DNA from: a virus
Taxonomy: Duplodnaviria; Caudoviricetes
Length of the DNA stretch: 43,068 bases
Reading direction: 5' to 3' (one strand)
IMG/VR virus record: IMGVR_UViG_3300043173_000374
Span: 1 to 43,068 of that record
Below, in pieces: positions 8,759-43,068 of the stretch; the stretch's first letter is position 1, and each line of letters starts with the position of its first letter. The translations under genes were made by a program, and so were the position numbers. Below the pieces are notes generated by a model. The model saw only the letters and a program-made list of their open reading frames with translations, had not been told where the DNA came from and searched no databases.

Positions 8759-9553
8759 ATGAAAAGGGAACCAAGGAAGAGAACCGGCAGAAGAGATGTG
8801 AAGAGGAGAGCGGTACAAGAGGCACCAAAGCCCGTAGTTGAAGGCTCGGAAGCTTCGGTTGAGGAAGAGAAAGCACCGGCGCCAAAAGTGCCTGTCAAAA
8901 AGTCAAAAGAGGCGGACCCGTTTTTAGACGAGATATACGTCAAGAAGAGGATCGACATGGATTTGGACCATAGAAAGTATGTTGGTCCTAAAGATAAATT
9001 CGAAGTCGTAGGTAAGCATCAATTCGAGGTGATGATAGAATCCGGGCTCAAAGCTTCAAGCTCATTGCTAGACATAGGCTGTGGCGCTATGCGAGGCGGT
9101 AAGTTCTTCCTGGAGTTTCTTGATGAAGGAAACTATTGTGGCATTGACCCAAACAAGGCCCTTCTTAGGAAGGGGCTGTTTGCGGAAGTTGAAGAGGAAG
9201 TTGCAAGAAGCAAAAAACCTTCTTTTAAACACAACGACAATTTCAATCTGTCCATATTTGACAGGGAATTTGACTTCATAGTAGCGCAGGCTATTTTCGC
9301 CCATGCAGCAGAAGATCAGATTGTTGCTTGCTTGAAGTCTGCACATGACGTACTGGCACCGGGAGGGAAGTTTGTTTTCAACTACTTTCTCGGCGAGAGT
9401 GACTATGCAGGCAAAGAGTGGGTGTACCCATGCTGCACCAAGTATACCGAGCTAAAGATGCTTGAGTTCGTAAGAAAGGCGGGTTTTGATATCGAAAGTA
9501 ATGTTTTTAAACACCCGGTCGGGCTGGTATGGATAGTAGCAAGAAAACAATAG
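8759..9553 (+). CDS. Class I SAM-dependent methyltransferase with charged N-terminal extension
   Basis: LLDIGCGAMRGG motif I, FDFIVAQAIFAH, VLAPGGKF. Confidence 0.88.
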   Translation: MKREPRKRTGRRDVKRRAVQEAPKPVVEGSEASVEEEKAPAPKVPVKKSKEADPFLDEIYVKKRIDMDLDHRKYVGPKDKFEVVGKHQFEVMIESGLKASSSLLDIGCGAMRGGKFFLEFLDEGNYCGIDPNKALLRKGLFAEVEEEVARSKKPSFKHNDNFNLSIFDREFDFIVAQAIFAHAAEDQIVACLKSAHDVLAPGGKFVFNYFLGESDYAGKEWVYPCCTKYTELKMLEFVRKAGFDIESNVFKHPVGLVWIVARKQ

Positions 9554-10101
9554 TCGTTCTCGGCTGCTATCGCGGAGGCACCTCGATGGTGGCAGGAGTG
9601 CTTCGCTGCCTCGGCATCTTTATGGGACACCGTTTTGGCGAAGAAGCCGGGGGTAGCAATCATGAGGACCTGGACTTTCAACAGTCCGGACCACCAAGAC
9701 TGAGAAAGCTCATCGATGGGCGTAATGCCGAACTAGACGTATGGGGGTGGAAAGACCCCGGCGCTATTTTTAACATCGAAGAGGTATGCAAAGATTTGAG
9801 AAATCCGTACTTCATTACTGTTTTCAGAGATCCGTATGCCATAGCTCTCAGCGAAGAGAAGCATAACCAAAGAGACATCGCTACCGGCCTGAGAGTGGCC
9901 GTAGGGCATCTGAGTAAGCTTGCGTACTTCAAGGTCAGTTATCCACAGTATAAGAACATGGCTGTGAGCTATGAGAAGGCTATTGCTAACAAGACCAAAA
10001 CAGTCGATGACCTGATAATGTACCTCGGCATATCAGTATCGTCGGACCAAAGGCAAAAGGCTATTGATTTTATACAGCCGGAAAGGTATGTAAAACTATG
10101 A
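9529..10101 (+). CDS. Sulfotransferase-family protein
   Basis: IVVLGCYRGGTS (5'-PSB-like loop), WGWKDP, VFRDP, VSYE. Confidence 0.8.
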   Translation: MDSSKKTIVVLGCYRGGTSMVAGVLRCLGIFMGHRFGEEAGGSNHEDLDFQQSGPPRLRKLIDGRNAELDVWGWKDPGAIFNIEEVCKDLRNPYFITVFRDPYAIALSEEKHNQRDIATGLRVAVGHLSKLAYFKVSYPQYKNMAVSYEKAIANKTKTVDDLIMYLGISVSSDQRQKAIDFIQPERYVKL

Positions 10102-11198
10102 ACATCACTTATTTCGGAGCAGACGACGGAGCTTGCGGGTATTACCGTGCGCAGCTTCCTATGAGTAAGTTAGCAGAGAAAAAAGCATCTAAGATCTTTA
10201 AGATCGAGAAAGCAAGTACGATTGAACAACTTGATTTCGGGCTCACAAATGGTGAGGTTATCTTTTGTCCACATCTTTCTGATGAGCGTATCATAAGCGT
10301 GATGAAAGAAGTGCAGAAAGACGGCAAGAAGATGGTCGTTGATTTTGATGATGATATATTCAACATATCTCCACTGTCGCCGCATTACGAAGAGTGCGGT
10401 ATTGAGAATGTACAAATTGGAACCCCCGACGGGAAGGCGATACCCCTTTGGGTAGATGGCGAGAAAGGTTTTGATATTCAGCGGAACAAAGACCACCTTG
10501 AAAGGATCAAAGAAGCTATATCTATGGCTGATATGGTAACAACCACTACGGACCTCCTGGCGGATCGATTCAGAGAGTTCAATGATAAAGTAGAGGTGCT
10601 ACCAAACTGTGTTGATACTGACCTCTGGCAGCCCCTTGACATAAAGCGTAAGAATGACGAGATCCGTCTGTATTGGTCGGGTGGTAGCAGTCATTACGAA
10701 GATTGGCTTCTTCTGCAAGATGTATTGCCTGAGATCATGCATAAGTATAAGAACGTGAAGCTGGTCTTAATGGGGCACCACTTTAAAGGCACCACGAAAG
10801 GCATCCCGGAGAAAAGAATCGAGTACCACCCTTGGGTTTCTATGGCGGCGTACCCGTACAAGTCGGCTATTCTCAATCCAGATATAGCGATCATACCTTT
10901 GCAGGATAATGCTTTCAACAGGCATAAGTCAGCTATTAAATGGACAGAGATGGGCGCCTTGGGAGTGCCTTCGGTTGTGAGCTATGTCAGCCCTTACAAA
11001 GAGGTAGACAATGGTGAGAATGCGGTATTCATAGAGGCCAATGATCCCGAAGGATGGATAGCGGGCATCTCTATGCTCATAGAGGACAGCATTTTGCGAA
11101 ATAAGATCGGAGGAGAGGCAAGACAAACCGTTTTCAGTAAATTTGACATTAACAAGCGCTGTTACGATTGGGTACGCGCTTATAGGAGTATACGCTAA
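10098..11198 (+). CDS. Glycosyltransferase (GT-B fold, GT4-like)
   Basis: YYRAQLP, VDFDDD, VLPNCVD and DIAIIPL..NAFNRHKSAIKWTEMGALGVPSVVS. Confidence 0.9.
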   Translation: MNITYFGADDGACGYYRAQLPMSKLAEKKASKIFKIEKASTIEQLDFGLTNGEVIFCPHLSDERIISVMKEVQKDGKKMVVDFDDDIFNISPLSPHYEECGIENVQIGTPDGKAIPLWVDGEKGFDIQRNKDHLERIKEAISMADMVTTTTDLLADRFREFNDKVEVLPNCVDTDLWQPLDIKRKNDEIRLYWSGGSSHYEDWLLLQDVLPEIMHKYKNVKLVLMGHHFKGTTKGIPEKRIEYHPWVSMAAYPYKSAILNPDIAIIPLQDNAFNRHKSAIKWTEMGALGVPSVVSYVSPYKEVDNGENAVFIEANDPEGWIAGISMLIEDSILRNKIGGEARQTVFSKFDINKRCYDWVRAYRSIR

Positions 11199-22211: not shown

Positions 22212-22675
22212 TGTACGAAGAAATATTACTTCCAAGAGGTGCGAAGCACCAAGAGCCGGATAGGGTTATCGTTCACGCTATGGGTGAGTACATAGACGGG
22301 GTGCATGCTTCCAGTTTTTTGATGAATGTTGGTCTTTCTGCACATATCCTGGTTTGCCCCGATGGGAAAATAATAAGATGCAGGCAAGACAATCAAGGGG
22401 CTTACCATGCCCGAAAGCATAATGTGAACTCATTGGGCATTGAGTTCTTGGTAGTAGGCAATCATGGTTACGCCAGCTTTAAAGAAATGATAAAGGAGCC
22501 TTATTTAACATCCGAGCAATACGAAGCAGGCATGGAGTTTGTCAGGGATGAGTGGTTCATTAAGAAAGGTATCAGGATGGTGGATAGGCACAGCGATGTA
22601 AGCCCTGAGCGAAAAGTAGATCCCGGTGAGGGTTTCCCCTGGGAGCGTTTTAAAAGAGAGGTAGGTATATTATGA
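22211..22675 (+). CDS. Endolysin, N-acetylmuramoyl-L-alanine amidase (Amidase_2/AmpD-like)
   Basis: VIVH, SAH, AYHA, NSLGIE and RHSDVSPERKVDPG motifs. Confidence 0.9.
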   Translation: MYEEILLPRGAKHQEPDRVIVHAMGEYIDGVHASSFLMNVGLSAHILVCPDGKIIRCRQDNQGAYHARKHNVNSLGIEFLVVGNHGYASFKEMIKEPYLTSEQYEAGMEFVRDEWFIKKGIRMVDRHSDVSPERKVDPGEGFPWERFKREVGIL

Positions 22676-23301
22676 AAAAATATTGGGCTGTACTGTTAAT
22701 GCTGAGTTCATGTGTTGAGCCTGCGTATGCCGGAGAGATAAAAGGCGGCATGTCCCATGAACAGGGCGTCTTAACTACGAACTCATACTTTATCGAGATG
22801 GCCGACCAGGTAGATTACATCGACTTGTCAGCTTATTACGGTTATGGTAAGACAGACGATACTGTGACACAAGACGAGGGCCGACTATCAATAGGGTATG
22901 ATCCGGTGATAAACGATAGCTGGTCATTGTGGATGGATGAGACTGTCGGCTATAGAGAAGGTATTAAACTTGAAAACTTCTTCGGCGCCGGGCCCAAATA
23001 TAAATTTAATGATAAGACATCTTTGAGTTTTGGTGTATTGTACTACTTTAAAGACTCGATGGACGAAGGAGAGGGACTATACTCATTCCGGCTAAAAACG
23101 AAGGCGCGAGGATTGGTTCTAACGGCTTTTTATCAGCCGTACATGCTAGGAGCAGGGCACATCTTGAAAGGTGACGCCTCCTATGCGCTAGGTAAGTACT
23201 TTGAGTATTTCTTTAAAGGTGAATACCGTAGTCGAGAGGACTACCAGAAGACACTACAGGGGTTACAATTTAAAGTGAGGTACGGAGATGAAACTAACTG
23301 A
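22672..23301 (+). CDS. Putative outer-membrane beta-barrel (DUF481-like)
   Basis: Signal peptide ending AYA; alternating aromatic beta strands (LSAYYGYG, FFGAGPKYKF, LSFGVLYY). Confidence 0.6.
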   Translation: MKKYWAVLLMLSSCVEPAYAGEIKGGMSHEQGVLTTNSYFIEMADQVDYIDLSAYYGYGKTDDTVTQDEGRLSIGYDPVINDSWSLWMDETVGYREGIKLENFFGAGPKYKFNDKTSLSFGVLYYFKDSMDEGEGLYSFRLKTKARGLVLTAFYQPYMLGAGHILKGDASYALGKYFEYFFKGEYRSREDYQKTLQGLQFKVRYGDETN

Positions 23302-23542
23302 GATGCATAAAAACGTAGTGGCTGTAATATTTTTTATGACCTTAGCAGTAGGGGGTACAACCTTCTTTGCCAGGCAGTCTGCTTTCGCGGCGCATGAGAG
23401 GAGTCACAAAGAGAAAGAGCTTTTAGAGGTTTTGTATGACTGCGAAACAAAATATGCAGATACTAAAAAAGGATTTATATTCGAAAGATGCAAAGATGCA
23501 AAAGTCGAATACGAACAACTAAAAGAGAAAGGAGAAAAGTAA
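23288..23542 (+). CDS. Membrane-anchored hypothetical protein
   Basis: N-terminal TM segment and a Cys pair. Confidence 0.6.
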   Translation: MKLTEMHKNVVAVIFFMTLAVGGTTFFARQSAFAAHERSHKEKELLEVLYDCETKYADTKKGFIFERCKDAKVEYEQLKEKGEK

Positions 23543-23733
23543 TGAAAGCAGTAATAAAAGTATGGGAATTTTTCAACAGTAAGAAAACTGCCATAGGCGC
23601 CTTCATGTTCGCCGCCGCAGACTTGGCTATGGCATTGGGCTATCCCGACATAGCAGGGCCTCTGAAGAACGTAGCTTACGTATTCACAGGCACCGGTCTT
23701 AGTCATAAGGTTGTTAAGAAAGTCGCATTTTGA
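23542..23733 (+). CDS. Putative holin
   Basis: AAGGAG RBS; FFNSKKTAIG followed by two hydrophobic segments and a basic tail. Confidence 0.55.
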   Translation: MKAVIKVWEFFNSKKTAIGAFMFAAADLAMALGYPDIAGPLKNVAYVFTGTGLSHKVVKKVAF

Positions 23734-23942
23734 TAAATGCGGTACTCGCAATATTGGCAGCGCTGATAGGCATCGTCGGGGGTATACTAGAAAGGAGGTA
23801 CGCCAAAGATGCAGTTAACAAAAGAAACGCAGAAGATCGGGATAAGGCAATCGCCGAAGGCGATACTGAGAAGCTTAACACTCATCTCATTGATCTTCAT
23901 AGCCGGGTGCGGAGGCAAAACCGTCGTAATTCCCGACAGTAA
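23730..23942 (+). CDS. Putative i-spanin (Rz-like)
   Basis: N-terminal TM followed by a charged helix. Confidence 0.6.
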   Translation: MINAVLAILAALIGIVGGILERRYAKDAVNKRNAEDRDKAIAEGDTEKLNTHLIDLHSRVRRQNRRNSRQ

Positions 23943-24042
23943 AAAATTAATCCCGCACCCAACTATGGAAGGCTATCAATGTTTGTCGCCGGGGTTTCTT
24001 AAAGAGATAATGGACGAGTACGCTATTTGCCTTGACAAATAG
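23809..24042 (+). CDS. Putative o-spanin lipoprotein (Rz1-like), overlapping the i-spanin; true start uncertain
   Basis: Lipobox FIAGC in a frame overlapping the i-spanin; Pro and Cys residues. Confidence 0.65.
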   Translation: MQLTKETQKIGIRQSPKAILRSLTLISLIFIAGCGGKTVVIPDSKKLIPHPTMEGYQCLSPGFLKEIMDEYAICLDK

Positions 24043-24060
24043 TTTATGATTTGATAAGAT
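24032..24060 (+). promoter_or_regulatory. Sigma70-type promoter
   Basis: TTGACA-17 nt-TAAGAT with TG extension. Confidence 0.7.
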
Positions 24061-24066
24061 ATCATT

Positions 24067-24131
24067 TTATTCATTGATAACTCCCTCCTCCTCATTATGC
24101 CCCTGGACTAATCCACCAGGGGCAGTTTTTT
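24067..24131 (+). ncRNA. Candidate ~65-nt small RNA carrying an anti-Shine-Dalgarno segment
   Basis: Bounded by the promoter and terminator; contains TCAT-7 nt-TCCCTCCTCC; no plus-strand ORF. Confidence 0.55.
24098..24131 (+). terminator. Intrinsic terminator at the convergence of the two genome arms
   Basis: TGCCCCTGG/CCAGGGGCA stem followed by TTTTTT. Confidence 0.85.
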
Positions 24132-24143
24132 GTCTACCAAGTT

Positions 24144-24305
24144 TTAACGTCTATCCTCTTTGTCTCTCACTTTCACTGGTATTTTAACGCCGAACAAAAC
24201 ACTACAAGTGTCATGCATAGAGCAAGCGGGCCTACAATGCTTGTCGTAGGTTGCCGCAGCTTCGTGTAACTCTTTTTGCTCACCTCTGCAATTTACAGTC
24301 TCCAT
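24144..24305 (-). CDS. Small Cys/His-containing hypothetical protein (53 aa)
   Basis: GAGGAGG RBS; read from sequence. Confidence 0.5.
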   Translation of the reverse strand: METVNCRGEQKELHEAAATYDKHCRPACSMHDTCSVLFGVKIPVKVRDKEDRR

Positions 24306-24411
24306 TGTGCTGCCTCCTCTCATCTCTCGACATATTCAATACCGCCGCCACCATAGCCCCTGTAAAACCACTTATGAAGCAAAGCAGAAATACTGTTGTC
24401 CAATGAAACAT
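24280..24411 (-). CDS. Small membrane peptide (43 aa)
   Basis: AAGGAG RBS; hydrophobic N-terminal half. Confidence 0.45.
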   Translation of the reverse strand: MFHWTTVFLLCFISGFTGAMVAAVLNMSRDERRQHNGDCKLQR

Positions 24412-24413
24412 AA

Positions 24414-24692
24414 TTAATTCTCCTTGTTTATTAATGAAAATGATTTATTAAATTGCAGTGTCTCTTTTTTATTTAACCAACCTATAACTCGTCCATCGGA
24501 ACCAGTTATCTTTCCTTTGCTAGATATACTAAAAATTACTTCACCTCCTGCAACCATTTGTACTTTATTGCCCCATCCTGCTAGTCCAGTATTTACATCA
24601 GAGCTTGTTATAGGAGAAGGTGCTCCGATAAGAGCAGGGACTATTCCTATATTTAAAATAAGTACTAATGCAATTATCAATCTAAGTTTCAT
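24414..24692 (-). CDS. Secreted or membrane hypothetical protein
   Basis: Hydrophobic N-terminus; AGGAGG RBS. Confidence 0.6.
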   Translation of the reverse strand: MKLRLIIALVLILNIGIVPALIGAPSPITSSDVNTGLAGWGNKVQMVAGGEVIFSISSKGKITGSDGRVIGWLNKKETLQFNKSFSLINKEN

Positions 24693-24693
24693 C

Positions 24694-25077
24694 TTAATCC
24701 TCCTTTTTCATAGCTTGAACTCTTTTCGCCACCTTTTTGAGAATGTAATACCCTACGAAGTCGAACTCAGGGTCTTCGTCGTCGTCACACTGGCCGGACA
24801 TTATGCGAGAGAGCTTATCGTCCTGTCTTACTTTGATCTGTTCAATCGGGTCCGCTTTTGACATTATCCTGACAGGGTTAACAGCCGAGTCTCCGTATTT
24901 TCGGTTCTTCTCTAAAAGCACGTCCCTCAGTATCTCACATTCATGCACTATTATCTGCTGCGTTAAGGACAAGGTATCGGGGGTGCGCTTTGGCTTACAG
25001 TTACATGGCTCATAAAAGCACCGGCTACAAGGGGTGCCGCTGAAAGTTATCTTACCCATTACTGTGTCTCTTTCCAT
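24694..25077 (-). CDS. DUF1599 / nucleotide-modification-associated domain-like protein
   Basis: LLEKNRKYGDS...IKVRQDDKLSRI...DFVGY. Confidence 0.7.
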   Translation of the reverse strand: MERDTVMGKITFSGTPCSRCFYEPCNCKPKRTPDTLSLTQQIIVHECEILRDVLLEKNRKYGDSAVNPVRIMSKADPIEQIKVRQDDKLSRIMSGQCDDDEDPEFDFVGYYILKKVAKRVQAMKKED

Positions 25078-25080
25078 ACA

Positions 25081-26091
25081 TCACCTCACTTTCCCTTTTA
25101 TGATTCTGTGATTCACTACTTCGAAATCGTTCTTCTCGACGAGCATTGTGGCGAAGCCATGGTTCCAATTATTGATAGGAGCGTAGGGCGGTTTGAGATC
25201 GCACAAAGTTCCAAGTGACCAGCATGAAACTATTCGCCCTCGGATATCAGACGCAGTGTGTTCACTTGACTGATGGAGATGTCCTACAATGCAACTGTCT
25301 TTAGCTTTGAGGTAAGCGCCCCTGGCAGCGTTTACCGGGTTAAAGAAACTTCTCCCGAACTCATGGCCATGTAGAATAGTCAGGTGTTTACCAACGAGCA
25401 TAATCTGTTGGGGCTGTACCATTTCAATACCGATCTCAAATGCTTTGAACAAAGACTCAAAGGTGAGGCAAGGAAGGTTGGCGATCTCAGGGGCTTTAGC
25501 GAATAGGTATGCCATCCAGCGCCTCTCATGATTCCCTAATTTGAATATGACTCTTTTATAGTGCTTCGTCAGATCCTTCAGAAAGGCCCCAACCATTTCA
25601 AGTTCTCCGGCTAAGTCCCTTGTATTCGGGTTGGAGCAGAAGCTACTCCCTTGGTAGAAGTCCATTATATCGCCATTGAGCAATATCCAATCAGTCGCAC
25701 CTATCTTTTCTGAATGCTCTAAGGCTCCCTTTAAAGCATCTTCATCATGGTACGGAAAATGTATGTCACTTAGGATAGTGCCGTGACCTTCCAGCTTTAA
25801 GTTAACTGGCTCTACCTTTTCAGGCGCATCATCACTTGGAGGAACGATGTTCCCGATTGGGGTGTTGACTTGTCTTTTCTCCGCAGGGCTGACGATCTTC
25901 GCCGCCTTCCTGTTTTTATTACCGGACTCCCCCCGGCGGTATCTAACCAGCCGTCGAGTTTGCTCTACTGACGAGAAGCAATCGTGTGCCTTGAACAGCA
26001 TCTTCGCCAGGGTTAGGGATGGTATCTCCGGGTCCTTATTTAACGCGGTTTCAATTACCTCTTTTCTTATTGCTATTAGCTCTTTGCTCAT
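25081..26091 (-). CDS. Calcineurin-like metallophosphoesterase
   Basis: SDIH, NGDIMD, GNHE, HGH and GHLH motifs. Confidence 0.9.
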   Translation of the reverse strand: MSKELIAIRKEVIETALNKDPEIPSLTLAKMLFKAHDCFSSVEQTRRLVRYRRGESGNKNRKAAKIVSPAEKRQVNTPIGNIVPPSDDAPEKVEPVNLKLEGHGTILSDIHFPYHDEDALKGALEHSEKIGATDWILLNGDIMDFYQGSSFCSNPNTRDLAGELEMVGAFLKDLTKHYKRVIFKLGNHERRWMAYLFAKAPEIANLPCLTFESLFKAFEIGIEMVQPQQIMLVGKHLTILHGHEFGRSFFNPVNAARGAYLKAKDSCIVGHLHQSSEHTASDIRGRIVSCWSLGTLCDLKPPYAPINNWNHGFATMLVEKNDFEVVNHRIIKGKVR

Positions 26092-26106
26092 CTCTTCATA
26101 GCCTCC

Positions 26107-26733
26107 TTATATTAAGTCTAAAGCGCCCCATTGGAGCGCCATTGCGTCCGCCCACCCATCATAAGTTTCACTTCTAAGCCTTTTGCGATCATCCCCTGGC
26201 GACATATACCATATTTTTTGCCTTTCTTTTACTGGCAACAGCATCATCTCGTCATAAACATCGTCTGTCACAGTCAGCGGCGGCAATCTGTCTAACCATA
26301 AGCATGTCTTCTTTTGCTCTTTATGCCCAAATTGCCAAGGGTGAATATACGTTGGTTTGCCCATTCGTTTTCTTGGTAGAACACCAACAGGGTTTTCCAG
26401 TGCGGCCCCTATCCTTGCCTCTTTCTTGGCGGTGTCCCACAATTTAACAGTCCACTCTATTGCCTCAATCCTTTCGTGATGCCTTTCTTTTGGGGATTCA
26501 TCTTTATTTATCCCATAAGTCCCATTGCCAGCAACAGTTAACGTAGTGCAATCAGGATGCAGTATGATAACATCCCAAGGGCCGTAAGCCATCAATGCCT
26601 CATAAATATCCATCTGCAAATGTTGTCCCGGCAAGCGCGTTGGGAGAATATCACAACTCCAAGCGTCGTGCCCGCGTGCGGCAAAAGCCTCTCTAACTTT
26701 CCCGTTTTCTTCACAACCTGCAAGGACCCTCAT
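26107..26733 (-). CDS. Short phage DNA cytosine methyltransferase-like protein
   Basis: MRVLAGCEENG, SCD, HPDCT, LENP, KKTCLWL and RSETY motifs. Confidence 0.75.
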   Translation of the reverse strand: MRVLAGCEENGKVREAFAARGHDAWSCDILPTRLPGQHLQMDIYEALMAYGPWDVIILHPDCTTLTVAGNGTYGINKDESPKERHHERIEAIEWTVKLWDTAKKEARIGAALENPVGVLPRKRMGKPTYIHPWQFGHKEQKKTCLWLDRLPPLTVTDDVYDEMMLLPVKERQKIWYMSPGDDRKRLRSETYDGWADAMALQWGALDLI

Positions 26734-28085
26734 CTCTTCATAGCCTCCATTAATAGGTCTTGAACACTTCGCTTAGTTTTTAACCGGGCCAACATGACCT
26801 GATCCGTTGTGTTCTCTGCCATTATATGATATATAAACACCGGTCTTTCATAACCGGATTGTAGCTGTCTTACCGGGCCAATACGCTCTATGATCTGATC
26901 ATACTTCTCAAGGTCCCAAGTGAGGGAGAAGAAGGCGATTATATTGCCGCCATCCTGTAAGTTAAGGCCATGCCCTGCGCTTGCGGGATGGGCGAACAGT
27001 ATTGGTATCTTGCCTTTGTTCCAATCGCTGATAGTTTTGTCTTCATCATCAAGCACCCTACCCTTTGGAAAATGTTTTTGAAGCCTTGCGAGATCAGACT
27101 TGAACCAATAAGATACGAGCACGGGCATCCCCCCGGCCTCGTTGATTATAGATTCAAGCGCTTCCAGCTTGGCTTTATGCACCTCCTTCCAGTTTTGTTT
27201 ATCATCTATATACACAGCGCCATTGGCTAACTGCGAACACTTATTGGATAACGCCGCTGCGTTGAATGCTTCTATCTCATGCTCTCCAAGATCAGCGTAC
27301 ATCTGTTGTTCGAACTGATCGTACAACTCACGAGCTTTCTTCGGGAGTTCTACTTCGATGTTGGTTACAATAGGCTCTTCAAGGTCGAAATAGTCCTTCG
27401 CTTTGAGCGTAAGGCATACGTCCGATATCTTCTGTTGTATCTCTTTTTCGGAGCCCTTACAGAGCGAATATGAGAACCCGTTCCAATCCTGTTTGAACCA
27501 CCTGTCCTTAAAAGCTGTGAACGTAGCACCCAGGCGTTCCCCGAAGTCCATGAACCACATCGGCCCCCACAGGCAGAGGTACCCGTTTGGTGCAGGGGTC
27601 CCGGTAAGATTAATCCATCGCTCTGTGCAACGAGCTACTTTCTTAAGAGATTTTGCTCTTTGCGCCCCGCCCCTAGATCTAAACCCTTTGAGCTTTGTCG
27701 ATTCATCTACAACAACAGTATCGAAAGGCCATCCCTTCTTACACTGATCGACGAGCCATACGAGGTTATCATAATTAATAGCATAGATGTCCGCTTTCGT
27801 CTTCAGGGCCCGTAGCCTTTCGTCGGGCTTGCCTAAGATCACTGAGACTGTAAGGTGCCTCGTATGCGCCCATTTGATGACTTCCTTTGGCCATACGCTC
27901 CTCGCTACTCGCTTCGGGGCGATGACGAGCATTCTGTCGGCTTCGCCTAGTAGCTTTAATGTGATGAAAGCATCCAGCACAGATACCGTCTTACCAAGGC
28001 CCATGTCCACGAACAGACTTGACCGGGGGTGTTGTATCAAGTGGCTGATAGCTATTTGCTGGTAGTCTCTAGGGGTGAAGTTCAC
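26730..28085 (-). CDS. SNF2-like / DEAD-box helicase
   Basis: DMGLGKT, VVDES, LTGTP, SAGHGLNLQ, QIIERIG. Confidence 0.93.
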   Translation of the reverse strand: MNFTPRDYQQIAISHLIQHPRSSLFVDMGLGKTVSVLDAFITLKLLGEADRMLVIAPKRVARSVWPKEVIKWAHTRHLTVSVILGKPDERLRALKTKADIYAINYDNLVWLVDQCKKGWPFDTVVVDESTKLKGFRSRGGAQRAKSLKKVARCTERWINLTGTPAPNGYLCLWGPMWFMDFGERLGATFTAFKDRWFKQDWNGFSYSLCKGSEKEIQQKISDVCLTLKAKDYFDLEEPIVTNIEVELPKKARELYDQFEQQMYADLGEHEIEAFNAAALSNKCSQLANGAVYIDDKQNWKEVHKAKLEALESIINEAGGMPVLVSYWFKSDLARLQKHFPKGRVLDDEDKTISDWNKGKIPILFAHPASAGHGLNLQDGGNIIAFFSLTWDLEKYDQIIERIGPVRQLQSGYERPVFIYHIMAENTTDQVMLARLKTKRSVQDLLMEAMKR

Positions 28086-34296: not shown

Positions 34297-34657
34297 TGAG
34301 CGCCACCTCTAATTTCTCCAACAAAGCAGGATAGTCCGCCTCAGAGACTTCCGTAACTTTCGCAGCGTCAAACCCACCCAGGATGTCCAGCACCTTGTCC
34401 CGACCCTTTGGCGATGCGGAGGCCAGTTTTACTACCACAGCCTTAATCTCATCAAAGGTGTCTGAGGTAGGTTTCGCGGCCTCCTCTTTAACCTCCTTCT
34501 GCTCTTTCTCAGGCTCTTTCTTCTTGGTTGTTGCCTTTTTCTTCACCTCCTTTTCCGGCTTGCAGCAATCCGCTTTATCGCTTGACTGCCCTTTCATTAC
34601 ATCTGCTAACATTTTGATATTAGCTGATAGCGCGTCGATCTTATCTTCTAATGACAT
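34289..34657 (-). CDS. Hypothetical protein typical of the position upstream of DUF2800
   Basis: MSLE...Lys-rich linker...AAKVTEVSEADY. Confidence 0.75.
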   Translation of the reverse strand: MSLEDKIDALSANIKMLADVMKGQSSDKADCCKPEKEVKKKATTKKKEPEKEQKEVKEEAAKPTSDTFDEIKAVVVKLASASPKGRDKVLDILGGFDAAKVTEVSEADYPALLEKLEVALNG

Positions 34658-34708
34658 CTTTTCTCTCCTCTCTATTATTTGTTTGACTTCTAATCACGAC
34701 TGAGCAAT

Positions 34709-34738
34709 ACTTTATTACAAGTTAAAACTTGTTGTCAA
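34709..34738 (-). promoter_or_regulatory. Leftward promoter with a palindromic operator in the spacer
   Basis: TTGACA-18 nt-TAAAGT on the minus strand; ACAAGT-TAAA-ACTTGT at 34717-34732. Confidence 0.65.
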
Positions 34739-34794
34739 GAGAAAAGTGTGTTAGTATGCATTTTATTTTAAATAGAAAGGAGGGAGAAGACGAA

Positions 34795-34986
34795 ATGGAT
34801 GAGAAAAAAGCAAGAGAGATATTAGTGGATGATATTATGGGTGACAATAGTTTGGGCAATGGCTACAGGTATTTGTCTTGGGTTGTTGGCGAGGATGAAG
34901 TGACTCTTGATGCTGAGTTTTCAGCTGATGAATTAGAGGCTATTGCTTGGTGGATGAGGAATATGAAAGCGCCAAAGGAGGGCTAG
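34795..34986 (+). CDS. Hypothetical protein
   Basis: GGAGGGAG RBS before MDEKK; LEAIAWWM motif. Confidence 0.65.
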   Translation: MDEKKAREILVDDIMGDNSLGNGYRYLSWVVGEDEVTLDAEFSADELEAIAWWMRNMKAPKEG

Positions 34987-35142
34987 ATGCAAAAAGCTCA
35001 GATAGAACTGATTAAAAGAAGCACAGGGATTCACCCGGACCATGAGGAGTTAACTTTTAGGGATCTGCTCATAGAGGCTGCCCGACAGCTTAGAACTGTT
35101 TGCTTTACGCTGATAGCTTTGTGGCTTTTGGGGATAATATAA
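34987..35142 (+). CDS. Small protein with C-terminal hydrophobic segment (51 aa)
   Basis: AAGGAGG RBS; read from sequence. Confidence 0.5.
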   Translation: MQKAQIELIKRSTGIHPDHEELTFRDLLIEAARQLRTVCFTLIALWLLGII

Positions 35143-35165
35143 CGATTGAATTGAGGAGCAAGCGG

Positions 35166-35414
35166 ATGAATGAACTTGATACAAAGATAAATGAAATAGT
35201 AGGTGAGGTAGCAAATGGGGGTGGGGCTATTGATGGGACTATTAAAATAATGGCCCTTATAACCACAACAGACGGTGAAAGGATAAAAGAGTTGGAAGCA
35301 TGGATAGTAGATTGCCGAGATAAACTACTTTACCCACTAGCGTTTGAAAACAGTGCTAATGGGAGACTTGCAGAAGAATTTGGGGCGAGCACAGTTAAAA
35401 TATTAAGTGCATAA
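35166..35414 (+). CDS. Hypothetical protein
   Basis: GAGGAG RBS before MNELD. Confidence 0.6.
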   Translation: MNELDTKINEIVGEVANGGGAIDGTIKIMALITTTDGERIKELEAWIVDCRDKLLYPLAFENSANGRLAEEFGASTVKILSA

Positions 35415-35490
35415 CCGTTACTATGTTCCCGAAGATTGTTTCGGAGACATAGCCTAAGTACTTGATTAAAAAAGGAGGTATTAAAGTTAA

Positions 35491-35742
35491 ATGGAAGAGA
35501 CAGGTATAGACAAGGCTGTGCAGTTAGCTGGTAGCCAGAGGAGGCTCGCTAAGTTACTGCGCATTACTCAACAGGCTGTGCAGCAATGGGTTGAGACAGG
35601 TTACGTGCCGCAGGGGAGGGTAGATGATGTCCTTGATGCGGTAGATCCTGGCTGTGAGCATGTACGACCGAGGGACCTCATGGACCCTATGGTTGTGGAG
35701 ATGGTAGACAGAGCTTTTGGCGAGGAGGATGAAGCTAATTAA
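35491..35742 (+). CDS. Cro/YdaS-like HTH regulator
   Basis: AGSQRRLAKLLRITQQAVQQW; AGGAGG RBS. Confidence 0.85.
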   Translation: MEETGIDKAVQLAGSQRRLAKLLRITQQAVQQWVETGYVPQGRVDDVLDAVDPGCEHVRPRDLMDPMVVEMVDRAFGEEDEAN

Positions 35743-35840
35743 GGGAGTCCATAAGTACAAAGATGATGACTTGTGGCGAATGATGGGGAATAGAGGATAA
35801 TAAATAAACTAAGGCGGCTTTGCCTGGAAAGGATGGGGAG

Positions 35841-36152
35841 ATGGCAATAGATATTACAGAATGCGTACATTGCGGGAATAAACAGAAGACTGTAAAACCT
35901 TGGAAAAGTATTCCAACATGCAGACTTTGCAAGAAACCAATGCACCTTACAGCCAACAAAGATGCCGGGGCGAAGCTCGCTTGTAGTGACGGGCTAGTTG
36001 TGTGGCCTAATAATTGCCTGAATGAAGCTATAGGGGCATTGCGTTACTTGGCGGGCAACAAAAGACCCGAGGGAGGGCAAAATATATTTAATAGCGAGCA
36101 TCTTCTACAGATTGCAAATGAGTTGGAAGCCGTTGGAGAGAAGAACAACTAA
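35841..36152 (+). CDS. Zn-binding hypothetical protein
   Basis: CVHC and CRLC motifs; GGGGAG RBS. Confidence 0.6.
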   Translation: MAIDITECVHCGNKQKTVKPWKSIPTCRLCKKPMHLTANKDAGAKLACSDGLVVWPNNCLNEAIGALRYLAGNKRPEGGQNIFNSEHLLQIANELEAVGEKNN

Positions 36153-36219
36153 CCATTACTATGTAGCAAAACAGGCACATAACACAGAATTAGTAGTTTG
36201 ATAATTAAGGGAGGGAGAG

Positions 36220-36513
36220 ATGGCTTGTGAATATGTAAGGGAATATTATGGAGTTCAGGCTTGTATTGGGAGGAGAATAACTTATAAAAAACGCGAGGGT
36301 GTAATCGCTGCCGACAGGGGAAACTATATAGGTGTAAATTTTGATGATTGTAAGCCCAATGTGATTCTTAATTTTCATCCGAAAACAGAAGGGCTTGAAT
36401 ATGGAGAAATGGGGGAAGTACGAAAAATGACGAGATCACAAAAAAAGTATCAAGCTTATTTGGATTCGGAAATTAGTTGTACTTTTGCTGAATATTTAGG
36501 AATAAGAATATAG
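36220..36513 (+). CDS. Hypothetical phage protein
   Basis: EYVREYYGV...GRR...NFHP...MTRSQKKYQAYL motif pattern. Confidence 0.75.
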   Translation: MACEYVREYYGVQACIGRRITYKKREGVIAADRGNYIGVNFDDCKPNVILNFHPKTEGLEYGEMGEVRKMTRSQKKYQAYLDSEISCTFAEYLGIRI

Positions 36514-36523
36514 GGAGGGAGAG

Positions 36524-36700
36524 ATGGTGAAGTCATTATATATAATTTGTGCCAAGTGTGGGTCTGATGAGATAAGGTTTAATTTAGATAAGCCAGTGAA
36601 GCCAGAGGGAGAAGATTGGGACAGAGGGGTATCTATTCGTTGTCAAGATTGTGGAGAACTTACAAGTCCTGAAGAATATAACGATTGGATGAATAGATAG
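36524..36700 (+). CDS. Small zinc-ribbon protein (58 aa)
   Basis: CAKC and CQDC motifs; GGGAGGGAG RBS. Confidence 0.65.
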   Translation: MVKSLYIICAKCGSDEIRFNLDKPVKPEGEDWDRGVSIRCQDCGELTSPEEYNDWMNR

Positions 36701-39764: not shown

Positions 39765-40256
39765 CTTGCAAAGAAATGCAGATTTCTAAAACGGATTTGG
39801 GGAGTGAAAAACCCGAATCCGTTTTTTTTGCAGAGTTTTTGCAAGTTTTATTTTCTGCATTTCTTTGCAGGTTTTTCTGCAATTCTTTGCAGTTCTGCAT
39901 TTCTTTGCGAGTTTTCTGCAATTCTTTGCAGTTTTACCACGGTGGATCGGCCCGATTAGGTCGAAAAGGGGCTAAAAAGGGGTCTAATCGGGCCGATTCG
40001 CTAATCGGGCAGCTAATCGGGCCACACTTAAGTTATTGTTTTATATATCTTATTCTTTATACTAACCCGATTACCCGATTAAAGTAAGTATATAGAGAGT
40101 ATAGAAAATAGAAAACGCGTTTTTCTTTCCTTCTCTGAGCTGAACGACTTGGAAACTACTCGGGTCGGGCAATCGGGCCGATGGCGAAAAACCTGCAAGA
40201 AAATGCAGAAACAGTTTTTTAAGCCATTTCTGCATTTTCTGCAATTCTTTGCAAGT
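39765..40256. repeat. Iterated, symmetric origin-like region
   Basis: Four tandem TTCTGCAWTTCTTTGC copies at 39853-39931 with related copies near 39766 and 40192-40255; AATCGGGC/CCCGATT repeats flank an AT-rich core. Confidence 0.7.
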
Positions 40257-40433
40257 TTATATTTCGGTGTTTAATTGGTCGTCTTCGAACATATCATTTT
40301 CGTATGGTAAGATGGATTCATTCAGAACTTTCCCCTGGTCGATTTGAATGGTAATTGTCACACAACCTGGAAGCAGCCAGAAAATGAAAATGATTAAGAG
40401 GATGGCGCCAATAGTTTTGATTATGTCTATCAT
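40257..40433 (-). CDS. Small lipoprotein (58 aa)
   Basis: MIDIIKTIGAILLIIFIFWLLPGC lipobox; acidic tail. Confidence 0.55.
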   Translation of the reverse strand: MIDIIKTIGAILLIIFIFWLLPGCVTITIQIDQGKVLNESILPYENDMFEDDQLNTEI

Positions 40434-40606
40434 AATAATTTCCCCTGGTCTACACAGTCCCGGATATAATCTTCAAGAGCTGCTTGCATGGAAGTCTCTT
40501 CCTTAGCGCAAAGAGCTTTAAACTGTGCCCGTTTGGACCTTTCCAAGAATATACGTACAAGTGCGGTTTTGTGTGCGGTTTTGTGTTCGATTATTTTTTT
40601 AGTCAT
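40430..40606 (-). CDS. Ribbon-helix-helix (ParG/CopG-like) protein (58 aa)
   Basis: LVRIFLERSKRAQFKALCAKEETSMQAALEDYIRDCV; GGAGGA RBS. Confidence 0.65.
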   Translation of the reverse strand: MTKKIIEHKTAHKTALVRIFLERSKRAQFKALCAKEETSMQAALEDYIRDCVDQGKLL

Positions 40607-40772
40607 TTTTCAGTTCCTCCTCGATTTCTTTTATCGCCTGTTCAATTTCATCCTCTGGCATTCCAGACCTTCTCAACCAACCTGGCAGACAGTCAGCACA
40701 TATCCCATGTGAAACAGGATGGTCCTCACCGGGCTTCATTACTAAGCTACAATCACAACATAGGGTTTTCAT
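40599..40772 (-). CDS. Small Zn-binding protein (57 aa)
   Basis: CCDC...SHGICADC. Confidence 0.6.
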   Translation of the reverse strand: MKTLCCDCSLVMKPGEDHPVSHGICADCLPGWLRRSGMPEDEIEQAIKEIEEELKND

Positions 40773-40804
40773 GTTAAAGCCCCTTAGAATTGATTTATGG
40801 GCGT

Positions 40805-40999
40805 TTAGTCGTCAGCTTCAAGCATTGTTTCTGCCTTGAAATGCGTTTCAAGATAATCCGATAATGCATTCTTGTTCTTTGATAGGTTTTCCGCCTCGCA
40901 AAGAGATAGAAACAATTTGCTGATGGCTATGTCTATGTTCTGTTGTCTCACATTCTCTTTGCCCTGGTTGATCTGCTCTTGGTTTCCGAACTGTAACAT
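40805..40999 (-). CDS. Early hypothetical protein
   Basis: GGAGGGA RBS. Confidence 0.6.
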   Translation of the reverse strand: MLQFGNQEQINQGKENVRQQNIDIAISKLFLSLCEAENLSKNKNALSDYLETHFKAETMLEADD

Positions 41000-41002
41000 T
41001 TT

Positions 41003-41287
41003 TTAATCCCTCCCTTCTGCTTTGTTGATGGCGTTTTCGAGTAGATCAGACATTTTACTTTTGCCCATGTTAAGATCGGGCCACAGTATAGAGGGAGATT
41101 CTGTAAAGTGTTTATACACATATTTGCAAGCCTCCAACAGCTCAGGGCTTGTAGCTATTAGCTGTGCGTTTGCTTTTGACTCTTCTTCCCCTCCATTTTG
41201 CCTAATAAGCGCGATTGTTGCGCCGTCTTCTTCACCGTAAACCATCCCTTCTTTACCATACCAAGGCCCTTTTGTATGTTCACTCAT
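41003..41287 (-). CDS. Early phage protein (HTxGPW...ANAxLIAxxPELLEA type)
   Basis: Characteristic motif pair. Confidence 0.8.
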   Translation of the reverse strand: MSEHTKGPWYGKEGMVYGEEDGATIALIRQNGGEEESKANAQLIATSPELLEACKYVYKHFTESPSILWPDLNMGKSKMSDLLENAINKAEGRD

Positions 41288-41303
41288 TTTTCAATACCTC
41301 CTG

Positions 41304-41678
41304 TTAATGGTTTAATTCAACCTGTTTCTTTTGTTCGTTGTAGGCTTTCCGGCCCTCTTTCAATACTGTATGGATCATATCAGAAAAATAGCTTCCATGC
41401 TTTTCGTTTTTGACCCCTAGATTATCCCGGAACGCCTCATAAGATTCATAGATGCATTGCCCTAAATAGTCAGACGCTAATTCTTGCCCTGTCTGCTTAT
41501 CGATTAACAATGCCTTAGCACAAAAAACAACAAGCTCTCCTGATTCAAGGCTTCTTATAGTGGCGCGCTTGCAGTCCTCATCAAACATATCAAAATTTAC
41601 ATCATACTCTTCCAGGGCGTTCATTTCTAACTTGAAGTTTTCCGTTTCAAACTTGTATATCGTCGCTAATTTTTCCAT
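41304..41678 (-). CDS. Early hypothetical protein
   Basis: AGGAGG RBS; LASDYLGQCIY and YFSDMI motifs. Confidence 0.7.
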   Translation of the reverse strand: MEKLATIYKFETENFKLEMNALEEYDVNFDMFDEDCKRATIRSLESGELVVFCAKALLIDKQTGQELASDYLGQCIYESYEAFRDNLGVKNEKHGSYFSDMIHTVLKEGRKAYNEQKKQVELNH

Positions 41679-41750
41679 TGTCTTTTCCTCCTCTTTTATT
41701 GTTTAACCGCTTAATCGGCCCACCTGGGAAGAGGTAGGCCTGTTAAATGG

Positions 41751-42635
41751 TTAATTAAGGTTTAACTGTTTTATGAGACTATCAATTTCAACCTGGTGGA
41801 ACATGTGACAGCCTATCTTTAACGCTTCTCCGTCATAGCTTATAACGGTGTAATGGCCCAAAGACAACCCTTTAACGCTCTTGCCTTGTGCGATGCGCTT
41901 CAAGGCAATTTTAACTTCTTTCAAAGGTGCGCTTGCGCTTCTCATGCTCTCGACATTATCACCATTAATCCGGCAAACGTCGTATACCTCACGGTGGGCG
42001 AAGCGGTTATGCCTCACGTTATAAGCTGAAGCGATTTTATTTGCTTTCCAAAGTTCGACGTCTTCCAGGAACTCGACATACTCAAGCTTATCTTGCTTTC
42101 TTTGTTTGGCCTCTTTTCTCTTCTTTGTGGCCTCAGCTTTCCTTTCCCTTTCCTTAATTGTTTTCATTACCTCTTCAGGGATGGAGAAGTCATATTTTGG
42201 GATCTTCCAGCCTTTGATTTTGAAGGTTGTTTTTAATTCGATAAGCTGATTATATACACTTTCTGCTGTGTTCATATAATCAAGCTTTCTTTGTCTCGCT
42301 TTGATTGCTTTCTTAAGGTTGTATTCAATTTCTCTTATGGCTGAAGATAAGTTTTCAGGGTCAGCGGGCCAGGACGGATTGTTACAATATAGTATCTCTT
42401 TATCATAAGGCAGCGCACTTCCCACATGGCTGCAATGCTGTGAAGTTGAAACACTATAGTCGCGATTAGTAAAGAGAACCAAGTTACTAAAGTAATGTTT
42501 TGCAATAGCGAAGTGCCTACCGTATGAATATATCGTTTTATCTTCAAAGAACATGTTTCCGCTCGTTCCCTCTGCCTGTACTTCATTAGCCCAAAAATGC
42601 GCCACCTCTTGATGATTTCTTAGTGTTCTTCTCAT
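41751..42635 (-). CDS. Early hypothetical protein
   Basis: YSYGRHFAIA, YSVSTSQH and KIGCH motifs; shared leader. Confidence 0.75.
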   Translation of the reverse strand: MRRTLRNHQEVAHFWANEVQAEGTSGNMFFEDKTIYSYGRHFAIAKHYFSNLVLFTNRDYSVSTSQHCSHVGSALPYDKEILYCNNPSWPADPENLSSAIREIEYNLKKAIKARQRKLDYMNTAESVYNQLIELKTTFKIKGWKIPKYDFSIPEEVMKTIKERERKAEATKKRKEAKQRKQDKLEYVEFLEDVELWKANKIASAYNVRHNRFAHREVYDVCRINGDNVESMRSASAPLKEVKIALKRIAQGKSVKGLSLGHYTVISYDGEALKIGCHMFHQVEIDSLIKQLNLN

Positions 42636-42724
42636 TTTTCAATCCCTCCTGTTAAAGTGTTTATGTTATGTTCTTAATCCCTTAGTCCTGCCCTCTATCC
42701 TCCAATAAAGGGCAGGGTGAAGGA

Positions 42725-43036
42725 TTAAAGCTGCTTGCTTAGTTCGTCAACTTCGTCTTTCAACTTCTTGATACTCCATTGTATCTTGTCAATATTTGTC
42801 TGTACCGCAGTCTTGCGGTCTTTGAACTCGTCATAAGTCTCGTAACAGTCTGCAATGTGTGAGGCTATGAACTCATAGTACTGTTTAGGTGTGTATGTGA
42901 AATGCGTGAACGCTTTACCATCTGCATAGTAACAGTCGATACGGTATCTGTTAACCCCTGCGTCCTTACCCTTTAAATCCATAAATTTAAAATTAACTTC
43001 TTTCATCTCTGTGTAAAACTGAACGCCCTTTTTCAT
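42725..43036 (-). CDS. First early gene, hypothetical protein
   Basis: Shared leader; downstream of the 141-169 promoter on the circle. Confidence 0.7.
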   Translation of the reverse strand: MKKGVQFYTEMKEVNFKFMDLKGKDAGVNRYRIDCYYADGKAFTHFTYTPKQYYEFIASHIADCYETYDEFKDRKTAVQTNIDKIQWSIKKLKDEVDELSKQL

Positions 43037-43068
43037 CTCTCAATCCCTCCCGGTTAAAGTGTTTACCT
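42942..43068. repeat. Terminal overlap identical to 1-127
   Basis: Exact match. Confidence 0.95.

Follow-up and report, generated by a model that had tools for sequence, protein, structure and literature searches.

Genome organization

The window, that is, the whole stretch of DNA analysed here (43,068 nt), represents a phage genome in full and carries a terminal repeat of 127 bp. This DNA was present in two runs, both of them marine sediment metagenomes, one of which may be its source; no RNA run was listed among its holders, which has no bearing on expression. Late genes (terminase, portal, capsid and amidase) run along the plus strand from 261 to 24042, and the minus strand encodes the replication module (exonuclease, SSB, polymerase and helicase) between 34657 and 24144; the best matches of the polymerase (46–53%) are to Caulobacter phage RW, Bordetella BPP-1 and the APSE phages. 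The plus strand also bears a Cro-like gene and a primase, and the early genes occupy minus-strand positions 43036 to about 40250. The candidate RNA unit that is the subject of this report is placed at the meeting point of the late and replication operons.

The divergent promoter region (34657–34795 and 35491–35742) has no repressor gene and contains only a Cro/YdaS-like gene, as it does in G002, the closest relative of this phage. The stretch from the end of the primase to the early genes (39770–40250) is filled with many TGCAAAGAA/TGCAGAA repeats and with CCCGATT repeats, is origin-like in character and includes, at 39792, a strong terminator on the plus strand.

The end of the lysis operon

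The late operon closes with two overlapping plus-strand genes. The first (23730–23942) encodes an i-spanin-like protein with an N-terminal hydrophobic segment, as judged by hydropathy. The second, which had been overlooked, is a 77-aa o-spanin-like lipoprotein gene (23809–24042) in the +1 frame and is the last gene of the operon. GGAGG stands 10 nt ahead of its ATG, its lipobox (IAGC) fits the pattern [LVI][ASTVI][GAS]C after a hydrophobic stretch, and it both overlaps and outruns the i-spanin-like gene, the two lying last in the lysis cassette. In X2, a 94%-identical relative, 8 of the 10 changes within the i-spanin-like gene fall on third codon positions, and all six changes downstream of the lipobox cysteine in the o-spanin-like frame are synonymous. 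In another phage (L300), the lysis cassette likewise ends with a homologous pair of overlapping genes, and the two i-spanin-like proteins share 34% identity.

Overlapped two-component spanins are characterized, in the part of the source used here, by a lipobox, a +1 frame and an o-spanin that extends beyond the i-spanin, and the o-spanin often goes unannotated (PMC6139136). The pair described here has the same layout, although the o-spanin-like product has no Pfam or other profile match; 23730–23942/23809–24042 thus fits the overlapped i-/o-spanin arrangement, with a putative spanin function. The analysis adds an unannotated o-spanin-like gene to this genome, and the presence of the pair suggests that the host is Gram-negative. 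Elsewhere in the lysis cassette, a gene at 22672–23301 shows a weak DUF481 match (E 0.007, below the cut-off) and has no relative among viral contigs.

Anatomy of the candidate RNA unit

A preliminary description of this DNA had proposed a stand-alone small RNA (sRNA) at 24032–24131, and the promoter, the unpaired CU-rich arm, the CAU-N7-UCCCUCC motif and the terminator on which it relied are all present where it had placed them. The predicted sigma-70-type promoter (24032–24060, plus strand) consists of a −35 TTGACA (24032–24037), a 17-nt spacer, a TG at 24052–24053 and a −10 TAAGAT (24055–24060). It would give rise to a 65-nt RNA (about 24067–24131, plus strand, with an estimated start accurate to ±2 nt), which is predicted to fold into 31 unpaired nucleotides in a CU-rich arm followed by a hairpin and six U. 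The arm carries an anti-start-codon motif, AUUCAUU (24069–24075, containing CAT at 24072–24074), and a CU-rich anti-Shine–Dalgarno (anti-SD) tract at 24081–24093, predicted to be unpaired and made up of UCCCUCC (24082–24088) and a second CCUCC. The intrinsic terminator (24098–24131, plus strand) has a 9-bp stem, a 9-nt loop and a U6 run, and would be shared with the late operon.

The motifs were therefore borne out as described, but the unit does not stand alone. The missed 77-aa ORF ends inside the promoter, with the −35 box lying in its final codons (L-D-K-stop), and some 25 nt separate its stop from the predicted start of the RNA; because of both features, we take the unit to be the lysis operon's 3′ end. 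The same two features lend weight to a rival reading. On that view, the locus is nothing more than the late operon's 3′ untranslated region (UTR) with its terminator; the unpaired segment is maintained because it stabilizes the mRNA or binds a protein, or else its conservation is a chance appearance, and the resemblance to a promoter is accidental. Neither the promoter nor the three-part unit exceeds chance, as that reading would have it. At 10/12, the promoter is the best of six promoter-like sites in 22500–26000, and shuffled sequences yield 6.3 such sites. Promoter, CCTCC and terminator come together at 1 of 523 terminator-like hairpins, against about 3.6 expected if they were independent (the set, drawn from 197 partly redundant sequences, has 22 hairpins with CCTCC and 85 with a promoter, and the single co-occurrence is this unit).

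Of the unit's motifs, only the hairpin is strong on its own: 24098–24124 folds at −17.9 kcal/mol (z −3.57), and none of 200 shuffles was equally stable. Its 9-nt loop exceeds the 8-nt loop limit of the terminator listing, from which it was hence absent. A possible operator, the palindrome TGATA-N3-TATCA across the −10 region, was rejected, since a change at 24054 in X2 breaks it.

Conservation in two relatives

Record 6 of X2 covers 23767–24131 and differs from this phage at 21 positions, the list being complete. Ten of the differences lie in the spanin overlap, five in the part that is o-spanin-like only, six in 24043–24058 and none in 24059–24131. The step from 6/16 to 0/73 is sharp (Fisher p=1.4e-5), and all six UTR changes are confined to 16 of 89 nt (simulated p=4e-4), which argues against a plain 3′ UTR; a 73-nt gap anywhere in the contig among 21 randomly placed changes has p=0.17, a value that a plain 3′ UTR would accommodate. 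In the unpaired zone, 0 of 39 positions changed, corresponding to p=0.10 at the contig-wide rate and to 0.004–0.007 at third-position rates. AUUCAUU and the CU-rich tract are both unchanged, and none of the six UTR changes touches any of the promoter's six consensus positions (a post hoc test, p about 0.05), with the −35 box additionally constrained as protein code. Among the differences listed for two other X2 contigs, the T run is longer by 2 and 3.

The second, more distant relative was reached through the opposite strand. The preliminary description had allowed that the motif might simply be the ribosome-binding site (RBS) of a translated 32-aa minus-strand ORF (MNKMISYQ..., 23976–24074). 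Used as a query against 1.84 billion proteins, this ORF gave a single match, the 67-aa singleton P0048, which reads as a minus-strand shadow frame spanning the whole unit. P0048 is known through its protein translation alone, with third codon positions unreadable, and was mapped back at minimum cost. On this mapping, the hairpin differs at a minimum of 4 of its 30 nt. Two of these lie in the loop, and the two in the stem face third positions that cannot be read, so that compensation is possible; the hairpin is at most compatible with 9/9 pairs, and all three codon-fixed pairs are kept. P0048 is compatible with the −10 region at no cost, the promoter spacer differs at no fewer than 6 of 12 nt and the TG is lost; this portion lies inside the matched stretch that found P0048, which biases its lack of indels.

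At least 9 of 21 nt have changed in the SD zone of P0048, a divergence that again suits a plain 3′ UTR. GGAGGAG can still be spelled there, as it can by 45 of 2,550 control 7-residue peptides, whereas GGAGGGA, corresponding to the UCCCUCC seed, cannot. The anti-AUG is kept at zero cost and, like the hairpin and the SD zone, lies outside the stretch by which P0048 was found. A plain 3′ UTR does not readily explain why P0048 retains the anti-AUG and a GGAGG-compatible core while the intervening letters change, and, given also the step in X2, we regard that reading as credible but unlikely.

The evidence for a real 32-aa protein gene is a very strong SD at good spacing and a frame that stays open in X2 with four synonymous codon changes. 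Three of these four changes, however, fall in the stretch that shares its third positions with the o-spanin-like gene, and in the free part of the ORF three of the four changed codons among codons 6–11 are non-synonymous (S6Y, I9A and N11S). In P0048, a 2-nt insertion after ATG AAT shifts the frame, so that the remainder of the ORF is no longer read from this ATG, and searches of PHROG and Pfam returned no family match. Because of this frameshift, the non-synonymous changes and the explanation of the synonymous ones by the o-spanin-like gene, the ORF does not appear to be a conserved protein; it is best listed as a shadow frame, and its ownership of the RBS is hardly tenable.

The minus strand could nevertheless function irrespective of the peptide. 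Read-through of the replication operon across the hairpin is proposed because no strong minus-strand terminator was found in 24200–23700, where the best hairpins before a T run reach −5 to −8 kcal/mol. Ribosomes would then load on the strong RBS and AUG and stabilize an RNA antisense to the spanins, delaying lysis, and any plus-strand RNA would act on it in cis. In line with this, the motif has the layout of the early leaders of this phage, and conservation stops at +16 relative to the AUG, as would a ribosome footprint. On the other hand, the U run lies on the plus strand and is longer in variants, the −10 positions are spared in both relatives, and the RBS-to-ATG spacing in P0048 differs from that in this phage, all of which makes a functional minus strand quite unlikely. 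The plus-strand RNA with anti-SD and anti-AUG features that the preliminary description had put forward is supported, as a predicted RNA, by both X2 and P0048, and the RNA element is probably under selection.

Search for homologues

Rfam gave no match to the unit at gathering score, and E values of up to 5 yielded four weak, unrelated matches. In blastn searches of 50,697 phage records, a 3.5 kb query found no match and a 116 nt query found 11 short chance matches; two DNA patterns run against viral contigs produced 2 and 1 matches, all unrelated. Loci were also collected by protein anchors. The helicase gave 62 loci in viral contigs (best 67%, G002) and 80 in metagenome contigs (best near-full-length about 57–61%), the phosphoesterase gave 52 (best 45%), and for the capsid 80 of 407 were kept (best 71%, G001). 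Gene 42635 and the o-spanin-like stretch led to one locus each, G003 and L300, respectively, and primase and polymerase searches of genome contigs found no relatives.

None of these protein-anchored loci carried the unit. Its best blastn match to all collected loci was 14 nt, and promoter, CCTCC and terminator coincided at 1 of 250 hairpins in 81 loci (L260, with a different layout) and at 0 of 14 in G003; the scan likewise did not detect the combination in G002. At the junction of G002 that matches the late/replication junction here (L208, G002:C1:16150-16372), a structured segment of 220 nt bears CAT-N7-CCTCCCC on its late strand, and no promoter-like site of 10/12 was found. A search of the open-access literature by title and start of abstract found no phage anti-SD sRNA of this kind.

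Predicted targets

According to the preliminary description, the RNA is complementary to a leader shared by early genes. Four minus-strand early genes in 40985–43068 (starts 43036, 42635, 41287 and 40999) do have the repeated leader ...AAC-GGAGG(G/T)A-N7-ATG, and the three plus-strand GGAGGGAG sites also exist as claimed (34779–36524; starts 34795, 36220 and 36524), these last being among the best predicted targets. The complementarity itself held in part: the SD core of 7–8 nt and the AUG pair with the RNA, but the shared AAACACTTTAAC upstream of the SD does not, and the leader of 41287 (GGAGGTA) mismatches the UCCCUCC seed. When duplexes were ranked with accessibility taken into account, the four early leaders came 5, 7, 10 and 15 of 62 starts and were outranked by 34795, 33109, 41678 and 24305. 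When everything but UCCCUCC was shuffled, the actual arm bound no better than the shuffles, either on the four early leaders (p=0.26) or on the three GGAGGGAG leaders (p=0.36), and the four are best seen as possible non-specific targets.

A wider preference was found when late and non-late genes were compared, with starts hand-picked in this phage and automatic in G002. Here, non-late leaders (n=34) bind the RNA better than late leaders (n=28; p=3e-5). Much of this bias recurs with a generic anti-SD motif (p=0.002) and among the leaders of G002 (p=0.003); the CU core prefers non-late leaders beyond the generic motif in this phage (p=0.008) and not in G002 (p=0.58). GGAGG is found in 23/34 early/middle (non-late) leaders vs 8/28 late ones, and all six GGAGGGA leaders are non-late. 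Among the top 25 duplex sites genome-wide, nine are start regions, every one of them non-late, and 16 lie outside start regions. Since GGAGG leaders sit mainly in front of early and middle genes, an effect of the RNA would fall mainly there. The seed is generic, predicted to block strong RBSs in general, and specific silencing of the early leaders, as first proposed, is unsupported.

The early leader has a wider distribution than the four genes named above. As the start-associated sequence AAACACTT(T)AAC..GGAGGGA-N7-ATG, it is repeated before early genes in 43068–40985 (minus strand) and occurs also before 32778. The same sequence precedes early genes in G002 (39900–42840), whose shared replication proteins are about 40–70% identical.

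The preliminary description went on to suggest that the RNA substitutes for a missing CI repressor. The repressor does seem to be missing, as no CI gene was found in this phage or in G002. Families of integrase, resolvase, S24, HTH_3 and ParA were matched in 0/2 complete genomes (this phage and G002), including PF00589, PF00239 and PF13614, though distant forms could escape a profile search. With neither integrase nor CI found, no lysogenic state is evident that would have to be maintained, and a CI substitute is therefore unlikely. A dedicated early-gene silencer, standing in for CI and maintaining a state like that of a lysogen or carrier, would account for the register of CAU-N7-UCCCUCC with four early leaders, for the restriction of GGAGGGA to non-late genes and for the absence of a CI gene. 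It is at odds with the shuffle result on the early leaders, with a seed that is unspellable in P0048 and with the lack of integrase, resolvase and ParA. G002, moreover, is equally CI-less and has the same GGAGGGA-N7-ATG early leaders with no unit detected, and the early promoter-like site at 169 would have no RNA-level brake beyond the 7–8 bp seed. We consider such a silencer very improbable. What survives of the earlier interpretation is a predicted anti-SD/anti-AUG RNA that has been selected; its early-gene specificity and its role as a CI replacement do not.

Proposed function and comparison with known systems

Small RNAs of virulent phages are poorly characterized. The reading that we favour, with a probability of about one half, is that the unit encodes an anti-SD/anti-AUG sRNA of the 3′-UTR type, resembling the csRNAs discussed below, which would damp mRNAs with strong SDs, here mostly those of early and middle genes. 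A host-type promoter within the o-spanin-like gene would produce the 65-nt RNA, or it would be released or trimmed from the late mRNA, and sRNA and late mRNA would share one terminator. Its unpaired CCUCC tract and CAU would pair with strong RBSs and damp their translation, so that early/middle and host translation would be turned down and most late genes spared.

The cia-dependent small RNAs (csRNAs) of Streptococcus have unpaired anti-SD and CAU motifs and, in the part of the source used here, are proposed to block translation initiation (PMC3091779). In the predicted RNA, too, both motifs fall within an unpaired region. In csRNAs, two stem-loops flank that region and the promoters are controlled by CiaR (PMC3091779, same part), whereas here a single terminator hairpin is predicted, in a phage genome. 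They are also streptococcal and the host here, as judged from the spanin pair, would be Gram-negative; Rfam gave no match. The cuckoo, RSs0680 and alpha-r14 RNAs, in the part of the source used here (PMC4615179), have 2–4 hairpins each with CCUCCUCCC in the loop. A CU-rich, anti-SD-like motif is common to them and to the predicted RNA, which differs in having one hairpin, a linear tract and an inexact CCUCCUCCC. By predicted structure and by model, the unit is neither a csRNA nor a cuckoo RNA, and its functional design would be csRNA-like.

Among 3′-UTR sRNAs, those of the MicX type (PMC9438474) and MicL (PMC4102768) provide a parallel in layout in the sections of these papers drawn on, with a promoter in the upstream coding sequence and an RNA that matches the 3′ UTR. 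The unit has promoter elements inside the upstream ORF, a gene under purifying selection, with the promoter identified by consensus match only, and an RNA that would extend over the 3′ UTR. MicX and MicL are chromosomal and experimentally shown, whereas the present unit lies in a phage lysis operon and is predicted from sequence.

Phage sRNAs such as sar, OOP, aQ, 24B_1, VpdS, PreS and PAK_P4as15 are short and act on translation or stability, and PAK_P4as15 is linked to a lysis gene (PMC12197685, excerpted). Those reviewed in the excerpt are cis-antisense to one gene or Hfq-dependent and come mostly from temperate phages, and for none of them does it describe a lysis-operon end that encodes an RNA with generic anti-SD and anti-AUG action (PMC12197685). 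The cis-antisense arrangement of sar and OOP was not found here, as the opposite-strand 32-aa ORF is not conserved. The same 2025 review tabulates 38 uncharacterized phage sRNAs, which may bear on novelty (PMC12197685).

If real, the unit would show that phages, too, can encode an RNA directed against translation initiation in general; being attached to the lysis operon, it could couple late transcription to the shut-down of early and host translation. A further step, which we put forward as speculative and unlikely, is that a lytic, CI-less phage uses the accumulating lysis-operon sRNA as a translational timer that masks early/middle and host GGAGG sites without a protein repressor. If true, ribosomes would shift to the virion and lysis mRNAs, whose genes largely avoid GGAGG. 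The RNA is short and easy to test on reporters.

Other features of the genome

Several observations concern regions away from the unit. The genes at 26733 (a methyltransferase) and 26091 have leaders identical to each other (region 26087–26750), and an X2 contig omits 642 nt between these genes, with 20 letters that fit either side; because the contig skips from one identical leader to the other, leader repeats appear to act as gene-swap points. A weak match to ParG-type ribbon-helix-helix proteins lies at 40430–40606. In the late region, the motif AAAAAATTTTACTAAAAG is repeated at 945–965 and 1706–1725, ahead of genes 976 and 1734, and 1449–1733, which has no plus-strand ORF of 50 aa and no Rfam match, may hold a non-coding RNA. 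Right after the capsid genes (8759–11198), methyltransferase-like and glycosyltransferase genes are found, and G001 carries a homologous glycosyltransferase at the equivalent place after its capsid genes.
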